A stretch of DNA of 64,000 bases from Planctomycetota bacterium. Lineage in GTDB: Bacteria > Planctomycetota > SZUA-567 > H5-PLA8. The stretch is taken from contig JBBRPR010000002.1 in assembly GCA_038227875.1 (NCBI GenBank), positions 192,001-256,000 on the forward strand, in the 5' to 3' direction. Below, in pieces: positions 1 to 26,031 of the stretch. The notes below the pieces were generated by a model. It was not told where the DNA came from. It saw only the letters and a program-made list of their open reading frames with translations, and made no database searches. The translations under genes were made by a program, and so were the position numbers. Position 1 is the stretch's first letter. Each line of letters opens with the position of its first letter.

Positions 1-41
1 AATCGTGTCTTATCGCTAGTTTCAAGAGCCAAGAGCCGACC

Positions 42-980
42 TCAATAACTTCTCCACGGGTACAGCACCTTCATGTTTTTCAGCCGGTTGTAGGGCGATG
101 GATCGAGTAGCGTCGTGTCGGGCGAACCACTGGCGAGCACGCCGCTGCCGGTGCCACCGTTGATGCGCGTGATGCGCGAGAGTGTCAGCGTTTCGCGCTT
201 GTCGGAATCGCAGACGGTGATCGTGCAGCGGATCGCTTTGGGCGGTGGCGCGAAATAAGCGGACGTCAGGTTCGGCAGATTCTTGAACGTGTGTTCCACG
301 TCGTCCCAATACGCGACTTCAAAGTCGAGCACGTCCAGTGTCGGGAGCGAGCGGCCGTGGCCGGCTTCGTCGTCGGCGATGTCGCCGCTGCCCCATTCGA
401 AGCCCGGACACGTGGCCTTCGCGGGCGTATCGTGGCCGGCGCTGGTCACGGCCCAGTGGACCTGCGAGAGATAGCCGGACGTGTTGCCCTTGGTCACGTC
501 GGCAAGAAATTGCGTGCGCGGCCATGAGCTGTCGGAGCTTAGCGCGTTATGTCCCATCGCGCAAAGATTCACTTCCGCCGCCCAGGTGTAATTGTAGAGA
601 CACATGTTGAGGTAGTGGCTGCCCATCGTCGTGTTCGACGAGAACGACGGCATGCGCAAGTACGTCAGCTCCCCGCAATGGCGCTGCGAAGCGCCGTAGC
701 GCGTCGCTGAAACGGCCGGCGTGAACGGATCGGTGTCGTTGAATTGTCCGTGTTTGATGCCAAACTGATTGCCGCGCGTGTCGTAAACGGCCGAATTGAT
801 TTCCGTCTCGTAGTAATCGAGCATCATGCGCGCCGCTTCGTAGACGGCCAGTTTCCGCTCGATGCGAACGGTGGTCTTCGTGACGAGCCGAAAGACCGGC
901 ACGACCATTGTCATCAGACCGAGACAGACGGTGACGACGACCATCATCTCTATCAGTGTGAACCCGCGACGCATGTTCAT
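42..980 (-). CDS. Prepilin-type N-terminal cleavage/methylation domain protein (GspJ/PilW-like pseudopilin)
   Basis: MNMRRG/FTLIEMMVVVTVCLGLM class III signal peptide (G/F, E+5, hydrophobic helix); ATG at 980. Confidence 0.8.
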   Translation of the reverse strand: MNMRRGFTLIEMMVVVTVCLGLMTMVVPVFRLVTKTTVRIERKLAVYEAARMMLDYYETEINSAVYDTRGNQFGIKHGQFNDTDPFTPAVSATRYGASQRHCGELTYLRMPSFSSNTTMGSHYLNMCLYNYTWAAEVNLCAMGHNALSSDSSWPRTQFLADVTKGNTSGYLSQVHWAVTSAGHDTPAKATCPGFEWGSGDIADDEAGHGRSLPTLDVLDFEVAYWDDVEHTFKNLPNLTSAYFAPPPKAIRCTITVCDSDKRETLTLSRITRINGGTGSGVLASGSPDTTLLDPSPYNRLKNMKVLYPWRSY

Positions 981-1022
981 GTCAGAAAAACTCCGCACCA
1001 CCGCCTGGTCCAAGAGCCACGA

Positions 1023-1556
1023 CTAATTCAACTTCAACATGTACTGCGTGTAGCGGAAATGCCGCTTGGAACCTTTCAGATGCAAGTCCAGCGTCACGCG
1101 CGTGACTGGCAGCGCAGTGCCGGCGTTTTCGACGGGCGCGGGGCGGCCGAGGTCATCGGTGCCGACGCCGATGGTCTTGAGCTGCGTGGTGTCGACTTTC
1201 CATTCGTAGCGTTCGATGTCGCCGAAGTTTTCATAGGCATCGCCGGCGGCGTGGGCGAAATCGCGGTAGTTGCCGGTGTTGCCGTTGAGCGGTTCCTGGC
1301 GGGCGGTCATGTATGCGCTGCCGTCGAGCAGATCTGTGGCCGGATCGATCTGGTCGCGCCGAAGTTCCGCGAACTTCGACGCCGATAGATGAATCGATGC
1401 GTCTTGAAAAATCACCAGCGCCGCGGAGTCGATGCCCACCGGCATCGCGGCCATCACGCCAACGATTCCGATCAGGAACACGAACATCGCGATCAAGACT
1501 TCGACCATCGTTAAGCCGGCTCGTGCGCGTCGTCGAAGTGTGGGCAACTTCCGCAT
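1023..1556 (-). CDS. Prepilin-type protein (PilV/GspI-like)
   Basis: RARAG/LTMVEVLIAMFVFLIGIVGV prepilin motif. Confidence 0.8.
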   Translation of the reverse strand: MRKLPTLRRRARAGLTMVEVLIAMFVFLIGIVGVMAAMPVGIDSAALVIFQDASIHLSASKFAELRRDQIDPATDLLDGSAYMTARQEPLNGNTGNYRDFAHAAGDAYENFGDIERYEWKVDTTQLKTIGVGTDDLGRPAPVENAGTALPVTRVTLDLHLKGSKRHFRYTQYMLKLN

Positions 1557-18328: not shown

Positions 18329-20152
<1,824 letters not shown>

Positions 20153-20371
20153 TTGGATTTCTGTTTTTCTGCGTTTAATGAAACGCGCCCGGCCAACAGC
20201 CGGGCGCAACGGAAAACATTAACTCTACCCGAAGACCCACCGGAATGCCATAGCGCGTCTTGCGATTGCGTCCTCTCCCCCTGTGCGAATCACAAAGAAG
20301 AACTAGTGTCCCCCTCGTTTGAAGTCTGCGCCCATCGGCAGATGTCGTCCATGCAGCTTGCACTCAAGAGA

Positions 20372-20533
20372 GGGTGCCACTTCGTCTCGCCGTTGAGACC
20401 CGTGCGAGAGAGACCGGGGTGAGGGGATCTGCGTGGATCGTCAAAAGGCCCACTGCGTTTGCAATTTGGACCCCTGACGTACGTCTTGCAATCCAACCGC
20501 TGGAGTGTGCCACTGGTGGCTCGACCACCAGTG
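20372..20533 (+). repeat. REP/MITE-like hairpin element, copy 1
   Basis: GGGTGCCAC..GTCTCGCCGTTGAGAC, CTGCGTTTGCAATT and GTGTGCCACTGGTGGCT..CCACCAGTG; the same blocks recur inverted at 45438-45542. Confidence 0.7.
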
Positions 20534-20644
20534 TCGACTTCACGAAGGAGGCTGCCAGTTCGATGCGCTCCGATCACGCGACTTCTCTCCTTTGGTGGAG
20601 AGAAGGGAAGCCGAGCGATTTTGAGTCCCGGCGTCAGACCGTCC

Positions 20645-20726
20645 GCCCCAACCGGGGCAAAATCTGAAAGCCAGGGGCAACGCCCCTGGAATTGACACCC
20701 GTGATTTTCAAAAGCTCTGAAAGAGC
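20645..20726 (+). repeat. REP-like triple-hairpin element
   Basis: Hairpins GCCCCAACCGGGGC, CCAGGGGCAACGCCCCTGG and GCTCTGAAAGAGC. Confidence 0.6.
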
Positions 20727-20948
20727 GAAATGCCGCCACCGATCCGCGAAACAGGACGATGTCTAATAAGGGTTGCGCCCCAGTCTGGAGCACCGCGCCA
20801 AACCAACCCGCACGGCCCCCGCCCGCCAACCATCGCTCTCGTCTTGCTCCGGAAGTTGGGTGCCATGCGTCTGAGGCCGTTTTCAGACGCATGCGTCGCG
20901 AATTGCACTTTAAGCGCGACTGTGGTCACGCCAGTATACAAATTTGAG

Positions 20949-23900
20949 TCAATAGTATTGCATGACTACATTGAAGCCGTCTTTAGGATTTCCCATTACA
21001 TAGAGCCTTCCAGAGTCCCCGAACATCCATCCAGCTTGATCGTTGGAAGGTATTTGAACAACCAAGGCCTCTTCGCTCTCCACATTTTGAATCCAATTCG
21101 CCCAGCCACCAAGCTTCAAGCCAGGCGACGGTTCCGCTCCCCAAATACAGGTTTCGTTTCTCACAGGCGCTTGCGGTAGTCGCGCGTCAAATTCCAAGTG
21201 CAGTAAGTCCCGCAGTTCGGACCATATTGGTAATTCGTCATGGATTACCGGCTTCAAAGTTAGCCTGCGTCGAGATTGGCTTGGTTCGGGTGCTCGGCCG
21301 GTCTGTTCACAAAACTGTTCGAGGCCGTCCGCAATATTTAACAATTGTACGATCGGACGTGTCGCGGAGTGTTGTTCCCACCAATCGTCACTCCAGAAAA
21401 TGGTCAGCAGCGATCCCGGCGGCGCGTCAAATGGAGCGGCACCGGCGGCCACGGCAGGATCAAGCGGGAGCTGCGCGACAAATCGAAGTCGCACATCGTC
21501 GCTGCACGGCCATTCGAAACCTATGGGAAGCCATGGCAATTTTCCCCATGCGCCTTCGGTGGGTGAAGGTGGGTCTGTAGTCCATACTGGTTCAAATATG
21601 CACGCTTTTCGCCTGCACGATTGGACCGCTAAGTTGATTTCCTGCTCCGCGTCCTTTGTGCTGCCACCTGGTGCCGAAGGCGCTGGGACTAACTTGTATT
21701 TCTCTTCAAGACACGACTCGCCACTCTCAAGCTGGACCAATTCCGCGGGTGGTAATTCTTCCGTCCGCCGGAGCGACCCGCTTCCGCCAACGAGCAGTCC
21801 TCGCGGTGTTTCAAAGTGCGCCGTTTCGGCGTTTACCACCGACCGGGCTAGAGACGATAAAATCTCGCTTTCGCCCGCGTCGAGCCACGACGGACGCGGA
21901 TTGTACGGAACGACGCGCACGTTGCTCCGACAAAGTTCTTCTGCTTCACCACAGGCCGCCTCGGTAAGCGGCCGGTGAATGACGACCGCCTGCGGAATTG
22001 CCTTCTGTACTTCCAGTGTATGAAATGCCAGCGGCGGCAAGCTTACGACATCGCCTTCGCACGGGCGCGGTAACAACGCGACGAAGCCAGACGCCTTTTC
22101 GGCGGTGATCAGCAAAGGCCTGCCGGGCGGTGCTTTCAACTTGGTGAGGATTCTGGAGGGAATCAGCGCTGTTCGTTCTTCAATTCGCTCCGACATGACG
22201 ACTGCAGATCGCGCGCTAAAATCGACACGCTTTTCCTGCCAATCATTTCCTGCATGCCCGCACAGAAGACGGCTTATATCGACCAGTCGTCGTCCCTCAC
22301 TGAGCTGCATGGTTTTTTCGCTGAGCAACGAGTTTGCAAACAATCCGTCGCATACCAACTGCAATTCACGCTGTTCATTGATCAGAATGACCTGTGGTGC
22401 TTTGAGCTCAATCAATTTCTTCAGGCGATTGTTGCGATTGATGACAATTCGGTAGAGCTCATTCAAGTCGGAGGTCGCCCAATTGCCGCTCTGAAGTTGT
22501 ACCAGCGGTCGAAAGTCGGGTGGAATCACCAGCACATGTTGTTGAATGATGCCGAGCAGCCCCTTGCGGACCCCGAGATCTACGCCCTCAAGCAAAGCAC
22601 GAATCGCAACTGCCCCGATTCCCAAATCTTGAATACCAACGCCGGTAACAGGGTTCTTCGCATCTGCAAATTCGAACGCTCCTGATTGCGTGCGAATCAC
22701 CCGCTGTTTGCATTGCACTACATTTTCGATGTCGGCTTTCGAAAATTTCAAGGGCGCCAGAAGTTCTTCAAGAACGGAGGGTGTATCCATGCGCCAGAAG
22801 AATGGCACAATCGGTTGAGCGAGCGCAATATGGCCGAATCGATTGCGTCGCGCGCCGCGCTCAGGCCCAAATATACGTTCACAAAACAATGCGTCTGGAG
22901 TTGGTTTGAGTGTGGCATAGTTGAGCGTTTCCGGCCGCCAAACTTCGCCCGATGAACGCGCCAGCAATTCGTCCCGAGTCGCGACTCGAACCGTGACTTC
23001 CACGTGATCGCCGTCGCGCTCCAGCGAGGGGTATAGGCCCATGCCCCACAGGTACACTTCCACCTGCCTCAGACTCTCAGGCATTCCTGCTTCGGGAAAT
23101 CCTACATTGCTGCGATAGGCCCCGCGTAAGAGTTTGCGGCTACTCATATCATCGCATTTCAAGCTAGTGAATTCGGTCACGTTGGCCATCATTCCGCGCT
23201 CGCGCAGCCAGCGGATTTGGCTCACTGACACTTCAAGTCCACCACTGCGCGACTTGCCGCCCAATGGTCGGCAACTGATCAATGAATATGGGCCGATTCC
23301 CCGTGCATGCAAGAATTCACTCGCCGTGGTTTCGGCTTTGCCAATCGCCAGGCGTCGGACCTCACCTGCTTTCAGGCCGGCAAGTCGTGTTCCCAGTGCG
23401 TCAAGTTCAATGTCAACGCCGTCACCGAGCGATACGTCAACGCGAGACACAATGCCCAATTCTGATTCACCCCAGATCAGGACATCGCCAGGATTGATTT
23501 CGCGCTCCAGAACGAGACGAACTTTCACTTTGCCGCGAATCTTCGCCGAAGTAGTGCGCGGAAGATCGCGGCGCGAGAGCACCTCCACGGTGTCAATCTT
23601 GGAGCCGTTTGATCCGGGAGGAGCTTCCAGACTATCGCTGCATACCCGCTGCATGCCTGACGGAACCTTATCCTCTCCCTTGAGGGCGTGGCGGACGTAT
23701 ACCACGCTGGCGAGCACGTCGCCTTCATTGACGAGTGCGCCCTGCGGCATACAGCCCCGGTCATCCAGTTTTGCAAGCTGCGCGGCGGTGAGAAAAGGAT
23801 TGTCCTTTGCCAGACGATGAAATCCATATTCCGTCTTCGCCAGCTCCACTTCGCAATCAAACTCATGCTTGGACGCAAAAATTCGGGCGTCAGTGATATG

Positions 23901-24119
23901 CGGCGACAGATGAATTCCCGTTCCTGCGGCTCGCGTCGATCCACGAACATTCAAGTAGGGGCAACCATTCAGAGAGTTGTTTGACAAGTTTACTAAGCTG
24001 GCGATTCGCATAGAGCCCTCTTCGCGCAATAGTCCCATCGTGCGTTGAAGATGGGCTAGTCGATATTGACTTGCTACGCTGTTGTCGCCCACTTTTAGCT
24101 TAAAATTATGAACTCGCAA
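20949..24119 (-). CDS. Chimeric protein: degenerate RNA polymerase beta (flap and C-terminus) plus beta-prime (N-terminal clamp) plus a DUF1963/YwqG-like domain; predicted catalytically inactive
   Basis: HARGIGPYSLISCRPLGGK, LKCDD and PESL (RpoB-like); GEVWRPETLNYATLKP, LFCERIFGP, GHIAL, IPPDFRPLVQL, SDLNELYRIVINRNNRLKKL and KRVDFS (RpoC-like); PWLP..WP..LRFVAQL, KLGGWANWIQ and WMFGDSGRLY (DUF1963-like). TTG start is uncertain. Confidence 0.8.
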   Translation of the reverse strand: MRVHNFKLKVGDNSVASQYRLAHLQRTMGLLREEGSMRIASLVNLSNNSLNGCPYLNVRGSTRAAGTGIHLSPHITDARIFASKHEFDCEVELAKTEYGFHRLAKDNPFLTAAQLAKLDDRGCMPQGALVNEGDVLASVVYVRHALKGEDKVPSGMQRVCSDSLEAPPGSNGSKIDTVEVLSRRDLPRTTSAKIRGKVKVRLVLEREINPGDVLIWGESELGIVSRVDVSLGDGVDIELDALGTRLAGLKAGEVRRLAIGKAETTASEFLHARGIGPYSLISCRPLGGKSRSGGLEVSVSQIRWLRERGMMANVTEFTSLKCDDMSSRKLLRGAYRSNVGFPEAGMPESLRQVEVYLWGMGLYPSLERDGDHVEVTVRVATRDELLARSSGEVWRPETLNYATLKPTPDALFCERIFGPERGARRNRFGHIALAQPIVPFFWRMDTPSVLEELLAPLKFSKADIENVVQCKQRVIRTQSGAFEFADAKNPVTGVGIQDLGIGAVAIRALLEGVDLGVRKGLLGIIQQHVLVIPPDFRPLVQLQSGNWATSDLNELYRIVINRNNRLKKLIELKAPQVILINEQRELQLVCDGLFANSLLSEKTMQLSEGRRLVDISRLLCGHAGNDWQEKRVDFSARSAVVMSERIEERTALIPSRILTKLKAPPGRPLLITAEKASGFVALLPRPCEGDVVSLPPLAFHTLEVQKAIPQAVVIHRPLTEAACGEAEELCRSNVRVVPYNPRPSWLDAGESEILSSLARSVVNAETAHFETPRGLLVGGSGSLRRTEELPPAELVQLESGESCLEEKYKLVPAPSAPGGSTKDAEQEINLAVQSCRRKACIFEPVWTTDPPSPTEGAWGKLPWLPIGFEWPCSDDVRLRFVAQLPLDPAVAAGAAPFDAPPGSLLTIFWSDDWWEQHSATRPIVQLLNIADGLEQFCEQTGRAPEPSQSRRRLTLKPVIHDELPIWSELRDLLHLEFDARLPQAPVRNETCIWGAEPSPGLKLGGWANWIQNVESEEALVVQIPSNDQAGWMFGDSGRLYVMGNPKDGFNVVMQYY

Positions 24120-24224
24120 CCCCGCAGCGTTCGCGAAGTCTCTCAGGCCGACTGAAGTGTGTCGATCCTACTTCAGACCATAGGCAAGCCCCGACACGCG
24201 CCCCCGTACCTTTCTGCACATCAT

Positions 24225-24600
24225 GTATTATAAAATCTTTTTTACTAAAAGTACAGAAAACACTTGACTTTTGCGTTTCTCGACCGCTTATATACTATAG
24301 AGAAATATGAAAATCGTCCGTTACGGCCTCGCTTCGCTACCTGCACATAAAGCCCCGGCCACCTAATCTTGGGCCTGCCCTCAAACGCGTTCCAGCGGCT
24401 CCTGAGCGCCTCCACAGTCCAAACCCGAATCCAATGGCCACCCGCACGCGGAATGCTCCACAGCCCCGAGAAACGCGAGGAAACGGCTGCCACCTAGTGC
24501 ATCTACTGAGAATCCAGTATTATAAAATCTTTTTAACTAAATTCAAAGAAAACACTTGACTTTTGGGTTCGAGAGTTGCTTTATATTATAGGAAAATATG
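24225..24600 (+). repeat. Two AT-rich imperfect ~85-bp direct repeats (24225-24309 and 24517-24600)
   Basis: Shared blocks GTATTATAAAATCTTTTT, ACTAAA, AGAAAACACTTGACTTTTG, TATAG and AAATATG. Confidence 0.85.
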
Positions 24601-24897
24601 CGATGCCCCGTCTCATGCCAAACCGCGCTCTCTTTACGTATTGGCGCCCTTGGTGCCATGTGATCGCAGCACCGACCAAGCCTCGCTCTACCACCACAAC
24701 CCTACTCAATGTGCACCCAGGAAGGAGACCCCAACCCTGTAACATTTGGTAACATTCTGTAACAGTGCACGGAGAATATCCCATCACGCCAAATCACAAT
24801 TCCGCACGCGCCGGTGCCCAACTAATCCGCAATCCGCAATCCGCAATGCAGTTAATCCCCGTCCGCGTATAATCGAAAGCCTCTGCGAGGAGAATCT

Positions 24898-26031
24898 ATG
24901 CGCCCGTTTGCCCTTCTACTGCTGAGTCTACTCTCCCTGTCCCCGGCCTGGTCAGCGGACACCGAACCCAACACGCCTGAAGTTGCCGCAAAAGTCGCCG
25001 AGGCGGCGAAACAACTTCCAGAACAGTACACCAATCGCCCGCTGCTTTTCCTGCCGATGCTCGACGCCCCGAAACAATTGAAGGGCGATCTCTCCGATCC
25101 GATCTGGGAGAAGGCCACGCCGTTCAATCTGCAGAGCATGGTCAAAGGCGAACTGGTGCCGCCGAAGTTCGTGACCGCGGCGCGGATGTTCTGCACCAGC
25201 GACGCCATCTACCTCGGTGTGAAGTGTGAAGACCCCGACCCCGCCAACGCCACCGTCAGCAATCCGGCCGCGTGGCAGAACGACTCACTGGAATTCTTCC
25301 TCTTCCCCGGCGAGAGCTGCAAAGGCGGGAAGCTTTACTACCAGATCTGCGTGGATGCCTCGAAGAAGATCGAGTTCTACCACACGCACCTCTACCCGAA
25401 GAATACGTTCGGCGGCCGCAGCGAACCGTGGAAGCCGGCGGGGGTCGAATGTGAAATCACCAAGGACGCCAAAAGCTGGACGCTCGAATTGAAGATCAAG
25501 TATTCCGACATGGTGCTGCCTGATGAAGTGAAAGAGAAGCGCGCGATCTGGCGCATGGACCTCTTCCGCAACCGCGTCGCGCGCGGCAACATTTCCGCGC
25601 AGAGCATGGCCTGGGCGCCGACGGACGCGACCGGCAGCTACCATCTCTGCGGACGCTACGGCTACCTGCTTCCCGCCGCGCTGGTGAGCACCGACGTGAT
25701 CGGCACGGTGCTGGCCAACGCCAAGGGCGCCACGACGACCGACACGCCGCCGGCGCAGGAACTCTCGCGCGAAGTCACCGAACTGATCGGGCGGCTGGGC
25801 AACGACGACTACAATGTCCGCAACACCGCGATGCTCAACCTCAACACGATGGTCGAAGAGAAGAAGCTCGGCCGCTTCATCCAGACGCAGTTAAAGAAAA
25901 CACTCTCGGAAACGGAGGACTCGGAAGTAAAAATGCGCTCGATCAAGGTCTTGAAGACCTGCTATTCGTGGCTCAATCCCGACGACGACACGCCGCCGGT
26001 CAACAACAACGACTGGCAGGCCAAAGAATAG
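24898..26031 (+). CDS. Secreted protein with a CBM9/DOMON-like sugar-binding domain and C-terminal HEAT-like repeat
   Basis: Signal peptide; LKGDLSDPIWEKA, IYLGVKCED, WQNDSLEFFL, WTLELKI, WRMDLFRNR; LGNDDYNVRNTA. Confidence 0.7.
   Translation: MRPFALLLLSLLSLSPAWSADTEPNTPEVAAKVAEAAKQLPEQYTNRPLLFLPMLDAPKQLKGDLSDPIWEKATPFNLQSMVKGELVPPKFVTAARMFCTSDAIYLGVKCEDPDPANATVSNPAAWQNDSLEFFLFPGESCKGGKLYYQICVDASKKIEFYHTHLYPKNTFGGRSEPWKPAGVECEITKDAKSWTLELKIKYSDMVLPDEVKEKRAIWRMDLFRNRVARGNISAQSMAWAPTDATGSYHLCGRYGYLLPAALVSTDVIGTVLANAKGATTTDTPPAQELSREVTELIGRLGNDDYNVRNTAMLNLNTMVEEKKLGRFIQTQLKKTLSETEDSEVKMRSIKVLKTCYSWLNPDDDTPPVNNNDWQAKE

Follow-up and report, generated by a model that had tools for sequence, protein, structure and literature searches.

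Introduction

Which role is left to RNA polymerase parts that are encoded apart from the enzyme and have lost its active centre is the question raised by a gene in a 64,000-nt stretch of DNA from a Planctomycetota bacterium (GenBank assembly GCA_038227875.1, contig JBBRPR010000002.1, positions 192,001 to 256,000, forward strand), which is called the window in the following. The gene lies on the reverse strand (frame 20949..24119) and was described in an initial annotation, made from the letters of the window, as a catalytically dead mimic of RNA polymerase, in which the flap and C-terminus of beta (RpoB) are fused to the N-terminal clamp of beta-prime (RpoC) and joined to a DUF1963/YwqG-like domain, here termed the TYPP domain.

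In this study, we followed up this description by homology searches, structure and complex prediction, and inspection of related loci. The protein is a pseudoenzyme under selection and belongs to a large family in which the C-terminal domain is exchangeable. Its most strictly kept feature is the surface which in the real RNA polymerase docks sigma region 2 or NusG-type factors, while nucleic-acid and catalytic elements have decayed. For this reason we favour, with a rough probability of 0.4, the reading that the protein imitates RNA polymerase without being an enzyme, and captures sigma or NusG-type factors.

Reading frame, assembly and domain architecture

Positions 20949..24119 on the reverse strand form a single uninterrupted frame of 1056 codons with no internal stop. 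The 1056-aa open reading frame (ORF) of the initial annotation is thus indeed open, but its start is probably placed too far upstream. The mechanical ORF extends to TTG 24119, whereas the database gene call (P0002) and the homologues P0003-P0006 start at ATG 24011, which is residue 37 of the 1056-aa ORF. In the AlphaFold2 (AF2) model, residues 1-34 are unstructured with a predicted local distance difference test score (pLDDT) <50. ATG 24011 is the likely real start, giving a gene at 20949..24011 (-) with 1020 codons plus stop and a protein of 1020 aa. Residue numbers in the following refer to the 1056-aa ORF.

A misassembly had been named as one possible origin of the fusion. A separate assembly of run X1, which may be the source sample of the genome, contains a 3,377-base contig with 0 differences over 20867-24243. 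This contig spans the beta/beta-prime junction, which was therefore not introduced in the assembly of this genome. Stretches of the gene (window 21139-21358 and 23653-23930) were also matched identically by short contigs from two other studies, namely a peat metagenome (220 nt, depth 2.5) and a bioreactor metagenome (two 151-nt pieces, depth 2). The same or a very close strain is therefore present elsewhere.

The order rpoB then rpoC on a single chain was found consistently with Pfam, NCBIfam and alignments to the subunits of the same genome (9.3 Mb, 176 contigs, 88% complete), which on its contig C15 also carries the intact rpoBC expected from the initial annotation, with a normal rpoB (1278 aa) and rpoC (1415 aa). 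Three of the Pfam domains anticipated there matched above the curated cut-offs: RNA_pol_Rpb2_6 (residues 79-225, E-value 1.8e-7), RNA_pol_Rpb1_1 (residues 525-624, 5e-29) and, at the proposed DUF1963 end, PF09234 (residues 861-1047, 1.7e-8, 35.6 bits vs a cut-off of 23). With the NCBIfam models, residues 268-362 matched the last ~95 positions of RpoB, and residues 525-662 fell on RpoC.

From its N-terminus, the protein comprises first an RpoB flap-like domain (residues 71-205; 23505..23909, reverse strand as all features of the gene), covered by the Rpb2_6 match, in which residues 80-175 align with residues 796-898 of the own RpoB, and which matches the isolated beta-flap structures 2ly7 (E 7e-6) and 3woe (E 4e-5). 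It is followed by a remnant of the beta double-psi barrel (residues 206-267; 23319..23504), recognized by alignment to a solved beta chain, and by the RpoB C-terminal segment (residues 268-372; 23004..23318). The latter corresponds to positions 996-1090/1096 of the NCBIfam RpoB models, aligns with residues 1171-1269 of the own RpoB (residues 270-368, 34% identity) and also with E. coli beta 1239-1336. The junction, initially located near 23000, was found at residue ~373, i.e. at window position ~23003.

The beta-prime part starts with the RpoC N-terminal clamp core (residues 373-530; 22530..23003) and continues with the lid and clamp helices (residues 531-598; 22326..22529), which carry the Rpb1_1 match, a degenerate rudder and switch-2 region (residues 599-641; 22197..22325) and a remnant of the beta-prime double-psi barrel (residues 642-735; 21915..22196). 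Residues 40-420 of the own RpoC align with residues 365-679, and since the identity is only 34%, the gene is not a recent copy of the own rpoC. Thereafter come a family-specific segment ending with PRGLL.GG(S/T)GS (residues 736-790; 21750..21914), the end of which aligns structurally near the beta-prime C-terminus, a partly disordered linker of low family conservation (residues 791-860; 21540..21749; pLDDT 54-59 around residue 800 and <50 at residues 799-805), and the DUF1963/TYPP domain (residues 861-1056; 20952..21539).

Both the GGxP-type motif and the conserved Q of TYPP domains are present, the motif reading GGWA..WIQ in the window's protein and GGWP..W(I/V)Q in P0003 and P0005, so that P is replaced by A in the window's copy. 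A PDB sequence search with the TYPP part gave 0 matches. Contig C15 of the same genome carries a further DUF1963 frame, which stands alone (open frame of 233 aa, 60.5 bits; 157023-157577, reverse strand) and lies ~37 kb from the true rpoBC.

Loss of catalytic elements and predicted structure

The motifs that had been reported as lost, namely NADFDGD, beta GDK..K and the Cys4 finger, are all gone. The GDK..RHGNKG motif of beta is replaced by GDVLIWGESELG in the window's protein, which aligns there with GDKMCGRHGNKG of the solved beta chain, and the position of the NADFDGD loop reads LEVQKAIPQ. The 27-residue segment with the Cys4 zinc finger (RpoC 100-126) is cleanly deleted, leaving a gap in the clamp core, and the stretch behind it is shortened from ~114 residues in RpoC to ~75. 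The rudder and the basic, GKQGRF-type stretch of switch 2 are lost as well, while KRVD.S is kept. For the bridge helix, trigger loop, jaw and funnel no counterpart was found, with ~400 residues aligned across the beta-prime span. Polymerisation by the known mechanism is impossible for this protein, which has neither a metal-binding loop nor a beta lysine motif and is devoid of bridge helix and trigger loop.

The scores with models of true polymerases lie well under the cut-offs: 169.2 bits with TIGR02386 (RpoC; cut-off 963.5), 57 bits with TIGR02013 (RpoB; cut-off 801.15), the GDK..RHGNKG motif also being missing, and 163 vs 5372 bits and 129 vs 4632 bits with the models NF007172 and NF011417 for fused beta/beta-prime. 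Nor was the pattern of YonO-like polymerases found, in which one barrel carries DxDxD and the other has basic residues. An alternative metal-binding triad had been named as an observation that would speak against a dead mimic; an acidic cluster conserved in the family was looked for in both barrels, and none was found.

The initial annotation had also invoked the flap as the site for sigma region 4, which probably does not hold for this protein. The flap body matches RpoB; the tip segment is ~7 residues shorter than in the own RpoB, forms a coil in the model (no helix at residues 144-155) and is not conserved.

The AF2 model, calculated with the family alignment A2, reached a pLDDT of 87.1 and a predicted template modelling score of 0.78. 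Best matches with Foldseek were beta-prime chains (E ~1e-25), and VIA-align superimposed residues 366-783 of the model on beta-prime with 406 aligned residues, a Z of 26.2 and a root mean square deviation of 3.5. The aligned target ranges were 15..1357 for E. coli and 3..1258 for M. tuberculosis, and the Thermus range ended at 1473. Going by these end points of the alignment, the last aligned model residues may represent the returning C-terminal clamp piece of beta-prime. In a local sequence alignment of residues 736-800 with the C-terminus of the own RpoC, the score of 29 vs a shuffle mean of 26 was not significant.

Two strand-rich, high-confidence segments, residues 206-267 and 642-735 (predicted strands of the latter with pLDDT >90), align with the two double-psi barrels. 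In the model, the protein thus looks like a miniature core with flap body, two dead barrels and clamp, followed by the partly disordered linker and the TYPP domain. The flap-and-clamp architecture originally proposed is confirmed as to flap body and clamp, but more than that appears to be kept, namely degenerate versions of both barrels.

Homologues, variants and phylogeny

A HMMER search of 1.84 billion representatives gave 5103 matches with E <= 0.001, 254 of them with E <= 1e-30, true beta-prime proteins included. We examined 153 proteins, i.e. the best 147 new matches and 6 from an earlier homologue search. Among them, 98 are single chains of <1300 aa with the beta C-terminal and clamp segments and without the NADFDGD or GDK motif; NADFDGD is present in 18, which are polymerases, either true or fused at full length, and the other 37, without NADFDGD and mostly fragments, were left uncounted. 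The proposed search for homologues with the same deletions thereby yielded at least 98 diverged representatives in which the fusion is accompanied by these losses. Relative to the query, the 42 rows of alignment A2 have 23-54% identity; the frames are of full length and have conserved motifs in common.

The C-terminal end varies. It is a TYPP domain in 24 of the 98 members (721-1056 aa) and also in a metagenome-assembled genome (MAG) of the Planctomycetota (L006), while 74 members are without TYPP; the zinc-finger pattern is kept in 23 of the 98, and most of the others have ~710-820 aa and end near query residue 790. In 4 of 27 scanned relatives (P0208, P0225, P0230, P0241) the C-terminus is RNA_pol_A_CTD, the C-terminal domain of the polymerase alpha subunit (alpha-CTD), and in another relative (L120:568-3645, reverse strand) it is Amidase_2, a peptidoglycan amidase domain of the peptidoglycan recognition protein type.

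The DxDxD of the catalytic loop is absent in 97 of the 98, other DxDxD strings standing at non-homologous places. The exception, P0249, has a truncated DFDGD loop and is suspect, as it looks like a damaged true rpoBC. Two further proteins, P0007 and P0008, were rejected as family members, being frameshift artefacts of true rpoBC.

These cases show that frameshifted true rpoBC genes can mimic fusions, and the window's gene is a single copy in a MAG; it could hence be a duplicate in decay, a product of misassembly or a cryptic polymerase whose active site is non-canonical. Yet its frame is uninterrupted, the independent assembly contig is identical, 98 diverged relatives have the same deletions, the low identity to the own RpoC excludes a recent copy, the model is confident, and neither barrel holds a conserved acidic cluster that could serve a hidden activity. 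We regard decay, artefact and hidden activity as largely refuted and hence very improbable.

A quick tree was calculated for the beta-prime N-terminal part with 53 of 78 rows, 25 having been dropped by the motif-based cutting; it is provisional owing to long branches. TYPP-bearing and TYPP-less forms are intermixed in one clade on a long stem (support of 100 in the Shimodaira-Hasegawa-like approximate likelihood ratio test). The zinc-finger/alpha-CTD group forms a second clade (support 98), which stands among rows of true beta-prime and apart from the main groups with planctomycete names.

This tree bears on the question whether the protein might serve in the assembly or quality control of RNA polymerase, as a chaperone in which the TYPP domain and the polymerase-like scaffold together escort omega, sigma, nascent beta-prime or the like. 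The available text of PMC4275035 predicts a protein-protein interaction function of chaperone-like type for TYPP, and the structural alignment reaches from the beta-prime N-terminus to near its C-terminus, both in agreement with such a role. On the other hand, 74 of the 98 members lack TYPP and the two forms intermix in the tree, therefore the common function cannot depend on TYPP, and the family is rare although assembly of RNA polymerase is universal. A chaperone function is clearly improbable.

Conservation and predicted sigma docking

Clamp helices were named in the initial annotation as the best-preserved stretch, and this was borne out. Conservation in 25-residue blocks is 0.69-0.76 at residues 526-575 vs a mean of 0.50 for residues 373-790; values beyond residue 790 are depressed, as many alignment rows are without that part. 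When the family consensus was set against that of 40 true beta-prime N-termini, near identity was seen for the lid and clamp helices (residues 531-598), while rudder, basic switch 2 and catalytic loop are lost.

For prediction of a complex, residues 261-790 (with alignment A2) were combined with residues 118-430 of the RpoD encoded in the same genome (L096). The score was 0.71, the best of 3 controls reaching 0.17. Among solved complexes 116 of 157 reach the mark, and among mismatched pairs 2 of 215, which is a rough guide only, since an own alignment was used here. At least 48% of contacts are common to the runs, and the pLDDT of the partner is at least 81. In the predicted interface, clamp-helix residues 561-588 face RpoD residues 361-376, which is the canonical sigma-2 site. 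Compared with random sets of equal size drawn from residues 373-790, the 23 interface residues show higher conservation (10 of 10,000 samples as high), and 15 of the 23 match the true beta-prime consensus vs 115 of 418 residues overall. The RpoD model supports binding insofar as the predicted surface still resembles the sigma site.

The tip of the clamp helices is also the site of NusG/RfaH. The protein might consequently titrate factors of the NusG/Spt5 family or other elongation factors and not sigma, and as the same tip is used, the conservation data cannot separate the two. However, a protein beginning at the flap has no beta gate loop/lobe to complete the NusG site. Titration of elongation factors in place of sigma has quite a low probability.

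A canonical sigma-2 interface would equally be expected if the dead core, together with sigma and in some relatives the alpha-CTD, occupied promoters without transcribing and acted as a repressor or placeholder. The alpha-CTD, which binds DNA and activators, is fused to the four relatives named above. The window's protein, however, carries TYPP and not the alpha-CTD, whose bearers form a separate clade in the quick tree, the flap-tip helix positioning sigma region 4 is not kept, and the DNA/RNA contacts of switch 2 and rudder are lost. Such a promoter-bound pseudo-holoenzyme is rather improbable.

Distribution and genomic context

In an evenly drawn phylum sample, 2 of 401 genomes, this one included, were found to carry the family, but 0 of the 8 from the taxonomic family of this genome; the counts were the same with the whole protein and with its family-specific part (residues 640-1056). 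Named records with a family gene are Planctomycetota MAGs (L006, L007), and for the true RpoC of the genome, the best matches with a name are planctomycetes as well. A scan of genome contigs with the full alignment, which also catches true rpoC, left 80 loci, among which L006 and L007 only belong to the family. A metagenome scan with a hand-made pattern gave 89 stretches at 80 loci, 6 of which encode family members. From another scan, with alignment A4, 0 of 131 stretches were confirmed, the 82-aa confirmation query probably being too short. Nearest clusters in the ESM Atlas are viral beta/beta-prime-like proteins (best score 0.80), which is to be taken as a lead only.

Ten loci were inspected (the window, L006, L007, L089, L120, L128, L131, L147, L174 and L188). 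No conserved neighbour was found across them; the neighbours differ and are mostly housekeeping genes, in the window lepA and genes for a signal peptidase, a CBM9 protein and a ROK kinase. The only recurrences among the ten are DUF4058 in two loci and a glycosyltransferase context in the related pair L120/L174. DUF4058 directly adjoins the family gene at L007:7052-7891 (+), on the same strand with overlapping start, and at L128:292-1251 (+). Since DUF4058 is a multicopy family in such genomes, this adjacency may be chance. In the other family-bearing genome of the phylum sample (G104), the stop of an upstream DUF6940 gene overlaps the start of the family gene by 4 nt (L089:11245-12561, reverse strand), which suggests an operon of the two that was not seen at the other loci. 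A search for this DUF6940 neighbour in the window's genome gave no match, but a control search also matched nowhere, and no likeness was found to the ORF upstream in L006.

An immune or protective role had been offered as well. The protein might be a bait that soaks up, or senses via its C-terminal domain, phage proteins, toxins or antibiotics aimed at clamp, flap and switch region. Flap body and clamp, both present here, are parts of RNA polymerase bound by several phage regulators. The sporadic distribution in the phylum, the exchangeable C-terminal domains and the location between clusters of dispersed repeats would agree with a defence gene, and so would a GC content of 54.7-56.4% over 20-26 kb of the window vs 59-63% in neighbouring bins. 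Against this, PADLOC-DB 2.0 gave 0 families for the protein, its two flanking ORFs and the DUF6940 neighbour of L089, no defence genes were found in the ten loci, no recognised effector domain is present, and the flap tip, a frequent phage target, is not kept. A phage link via viral contigs was not found, the five matching loci (query residues 80-664, 261-664, 375-664, 375-676 and 531-729) showing the coverage pattern of true rpoBC; in PHROGs, rpoB- and rpoC-like profiles only were matched. With neither defence neighbours nor a phage association, this part of the initial annotation was not upheld, and we consider a bait function unlikely.

The low GC content itself (window 20001-26000) may reflect a foreign origin, or else the gene and its repeat-rich flanks are under a different constraint. 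Upstream of the gene, ~200 nt from its start, lies an AT-rich promoter-like element (24205..24315, reverse strand) with a perfect TATAAT, which is a candidate promoter of the gene according to its sequence. A distal copy (24512..24569, reverse strand; 86% identity) is located 292 nt upstream of the proximal one and reads TTGAAT-16-TATAAT (10/12). The element of ~100 nt has a conserved AAAAGTCAAGTG box and a small palindrome just downstream. Genome-wide, 40 matches (49 candidates) on 27 contigs with 76-100% identity were found, most of them in same-strand pairs ~280-415 nt apart with a partly conserved stretch in between, and the genes downstream are unrelated. Rfam gave 0 matches for 19500-25500. 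The element may be either a mobile promoter cassette or a small-RNA gene family. The 739-nt spacer towards lepA (20210-20948) is a mosaic of at least 3 other short dispersed repeat families, which are multicopy in the genome and often occur near copies of the promoter-like element. A 200-aa ORF within this spacer (20290-20892) was treated as spurious, since it has no Pfam match, is unlike the ORFs downstream of relatives and lies on dispersed repeats.

Functional interpretation

As a mimic capturing sigma or NusG-type factors, the dead miniature core would act stoichiometrically. Its clamp-helix surface would be offered to sigma region 2, or to NusG-type factors using the same site, and the captured factors would be kept away from, or in reserve for, the real enzyme, resulting in an anti-sigma factor or sigma holder built from sigma's own target. 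The exchangeable C-terminal domain, which here is TYPP, a chaperone-like domain expected to bind peptides, and in relatives alpha-CTD, Amidase_2 or none, could add a second binding or sensing function. The alpha-CTD fusions of relatives also suggest contacts of RNA polymerase with regulators or DNA.

Several results weigh against this reading. Complexes of sigma region 2 with clamp helices have been solved many times, so that the RpoD prediction, the sole functional test of the decoy or titration claim of the initial annotation, may be recall of solved holoenzymes and indicates that the surface is sigma-site-like, not that it binds. Inside the clamp helices, the conservation of interface positions hardly exceeds that of the other positions (0.71 vs 0.66), therefore the signal may reflect fold constraints or another ligand, e.g. 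NusG. The lid is as conserved as the clamp helices, for which sigma-2 binding offers no explanation. As the flap-tip helix is shortened to a coil and not conserved, a holoenzyme-like grip on the whole sigma factor is unlikely. The TYPP domain might cover the clamp helices, and a sigma gene is near the family gene in 1 of the ten loci only (L006, with an extracytoplasmic function sigma gene 1.3 kb away on the opposite strand).

Taken further, capture of sigma or NusG-type factors would mean that bacteria have repeatedly reduced their own RNA polymerase to a dead single-chain dummy displaying docking surfaces, i.e. the clamp helices and in some lineages also the alpha-CTD. They would use it as a new class of regulators, in which an exchangeable sensor (TYPP, Amidase_2, alpha-CTD) gates an anti-sigma factor or a reservoir of sigma. 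We put this broader idea forward as a possible but doubtful one. If the family does bind sigma or NusG-type factors, it would represent an unseen layer of transcription control by target mimicry, and would provide a natural minimal clamp module for structural and inhibitor studies as well as a first functional handle on bacterial TYPP/DUF1963. Even with another ligand, the family shows which RNA polymerase parts are able to fold and stay under selection without an active centre.

Comparison with known systems

The initial annotation knew of no described system with this architecture, and in the freely accessible full-text literature we likewise found no description of a dead bacterial multisubunit RNA polymerase paralogue or of a fusion of RNA polymerase with TYPP. 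With RpoB and RpoC themselves the protein shares clear homology in the flap, the beta C-terminus, the beta-prime N-terminal clamp, the lid, the clamp helices and both barrel folds, but it is one chain of ~1020 aa vs ~2700 aa and lacks the first ~790 residues of beta. Natural full-length beta::beta-prime fusions of the PRK09603/PRK14844 type are known from Helicobacter and Wolbachia. They have the same gene order in a single polypeptide; in contrast to the window's protein they are 2-3 times longer (2246-2812 aa among the matches), and most keep the catalytic motifs.

The two-barrel single-chain RNA polymerases of phages, i.e. YonO and the virion RNA polymerase of crAss-like phages, are likewise miniaturised single chains of ~100 kDa, but according to the available parts of PMC5467207 and bioRxiv 2020.03.07.982082 they keep DxDxD, are active and are very distant from cellular beta/beta-prime. 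The clamp helices of the window's protein, by contrast, are 46% identical to those of the host RpoC, and the metal site is missing.

Eukaryotic TYPP proteins are dedicated chaperones of ribosomal proteins. The C-terminal 196 residues of the window's protein match PF09234 and share the GGxP-type motif and the Q with the TYPP proteins (YwqG/DUF1963, Tsr4, PDCD2) described in the available part of PMC4275035. There, another TYPP family is fused to the RNA polymerase-binding DksA/TraR zinc finger; the fusions named in that part comprise lectin, ankyrin, BRCT, WGR, transmembrane, leucine-rich repeat, PsbP, MYND and DksA/TraR, and an RNA polymerase fragment is not among them.

With anti-sigma factors, as far as class I domains are covered by the available part of PMC7406223, the proposed mode of action has in common a stoichiometric capture of sigma by a sigma-binding module combined with a variable sensing domain. 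There is no homology, however, and the module here would be a copy of sigma's natural target, the binding being predicted only. TFS4 of Sulfolobus, described in the accessible part of PMC5715097, differs in being a small RNA polymerase-binding factor from another domain of life and not a copy of the polymerase. It is alike in that a paralogue of a transcript cleavage factor has lost its catalysis-related function and was turned by mimicry into an inhibitor of RNA polymerase.

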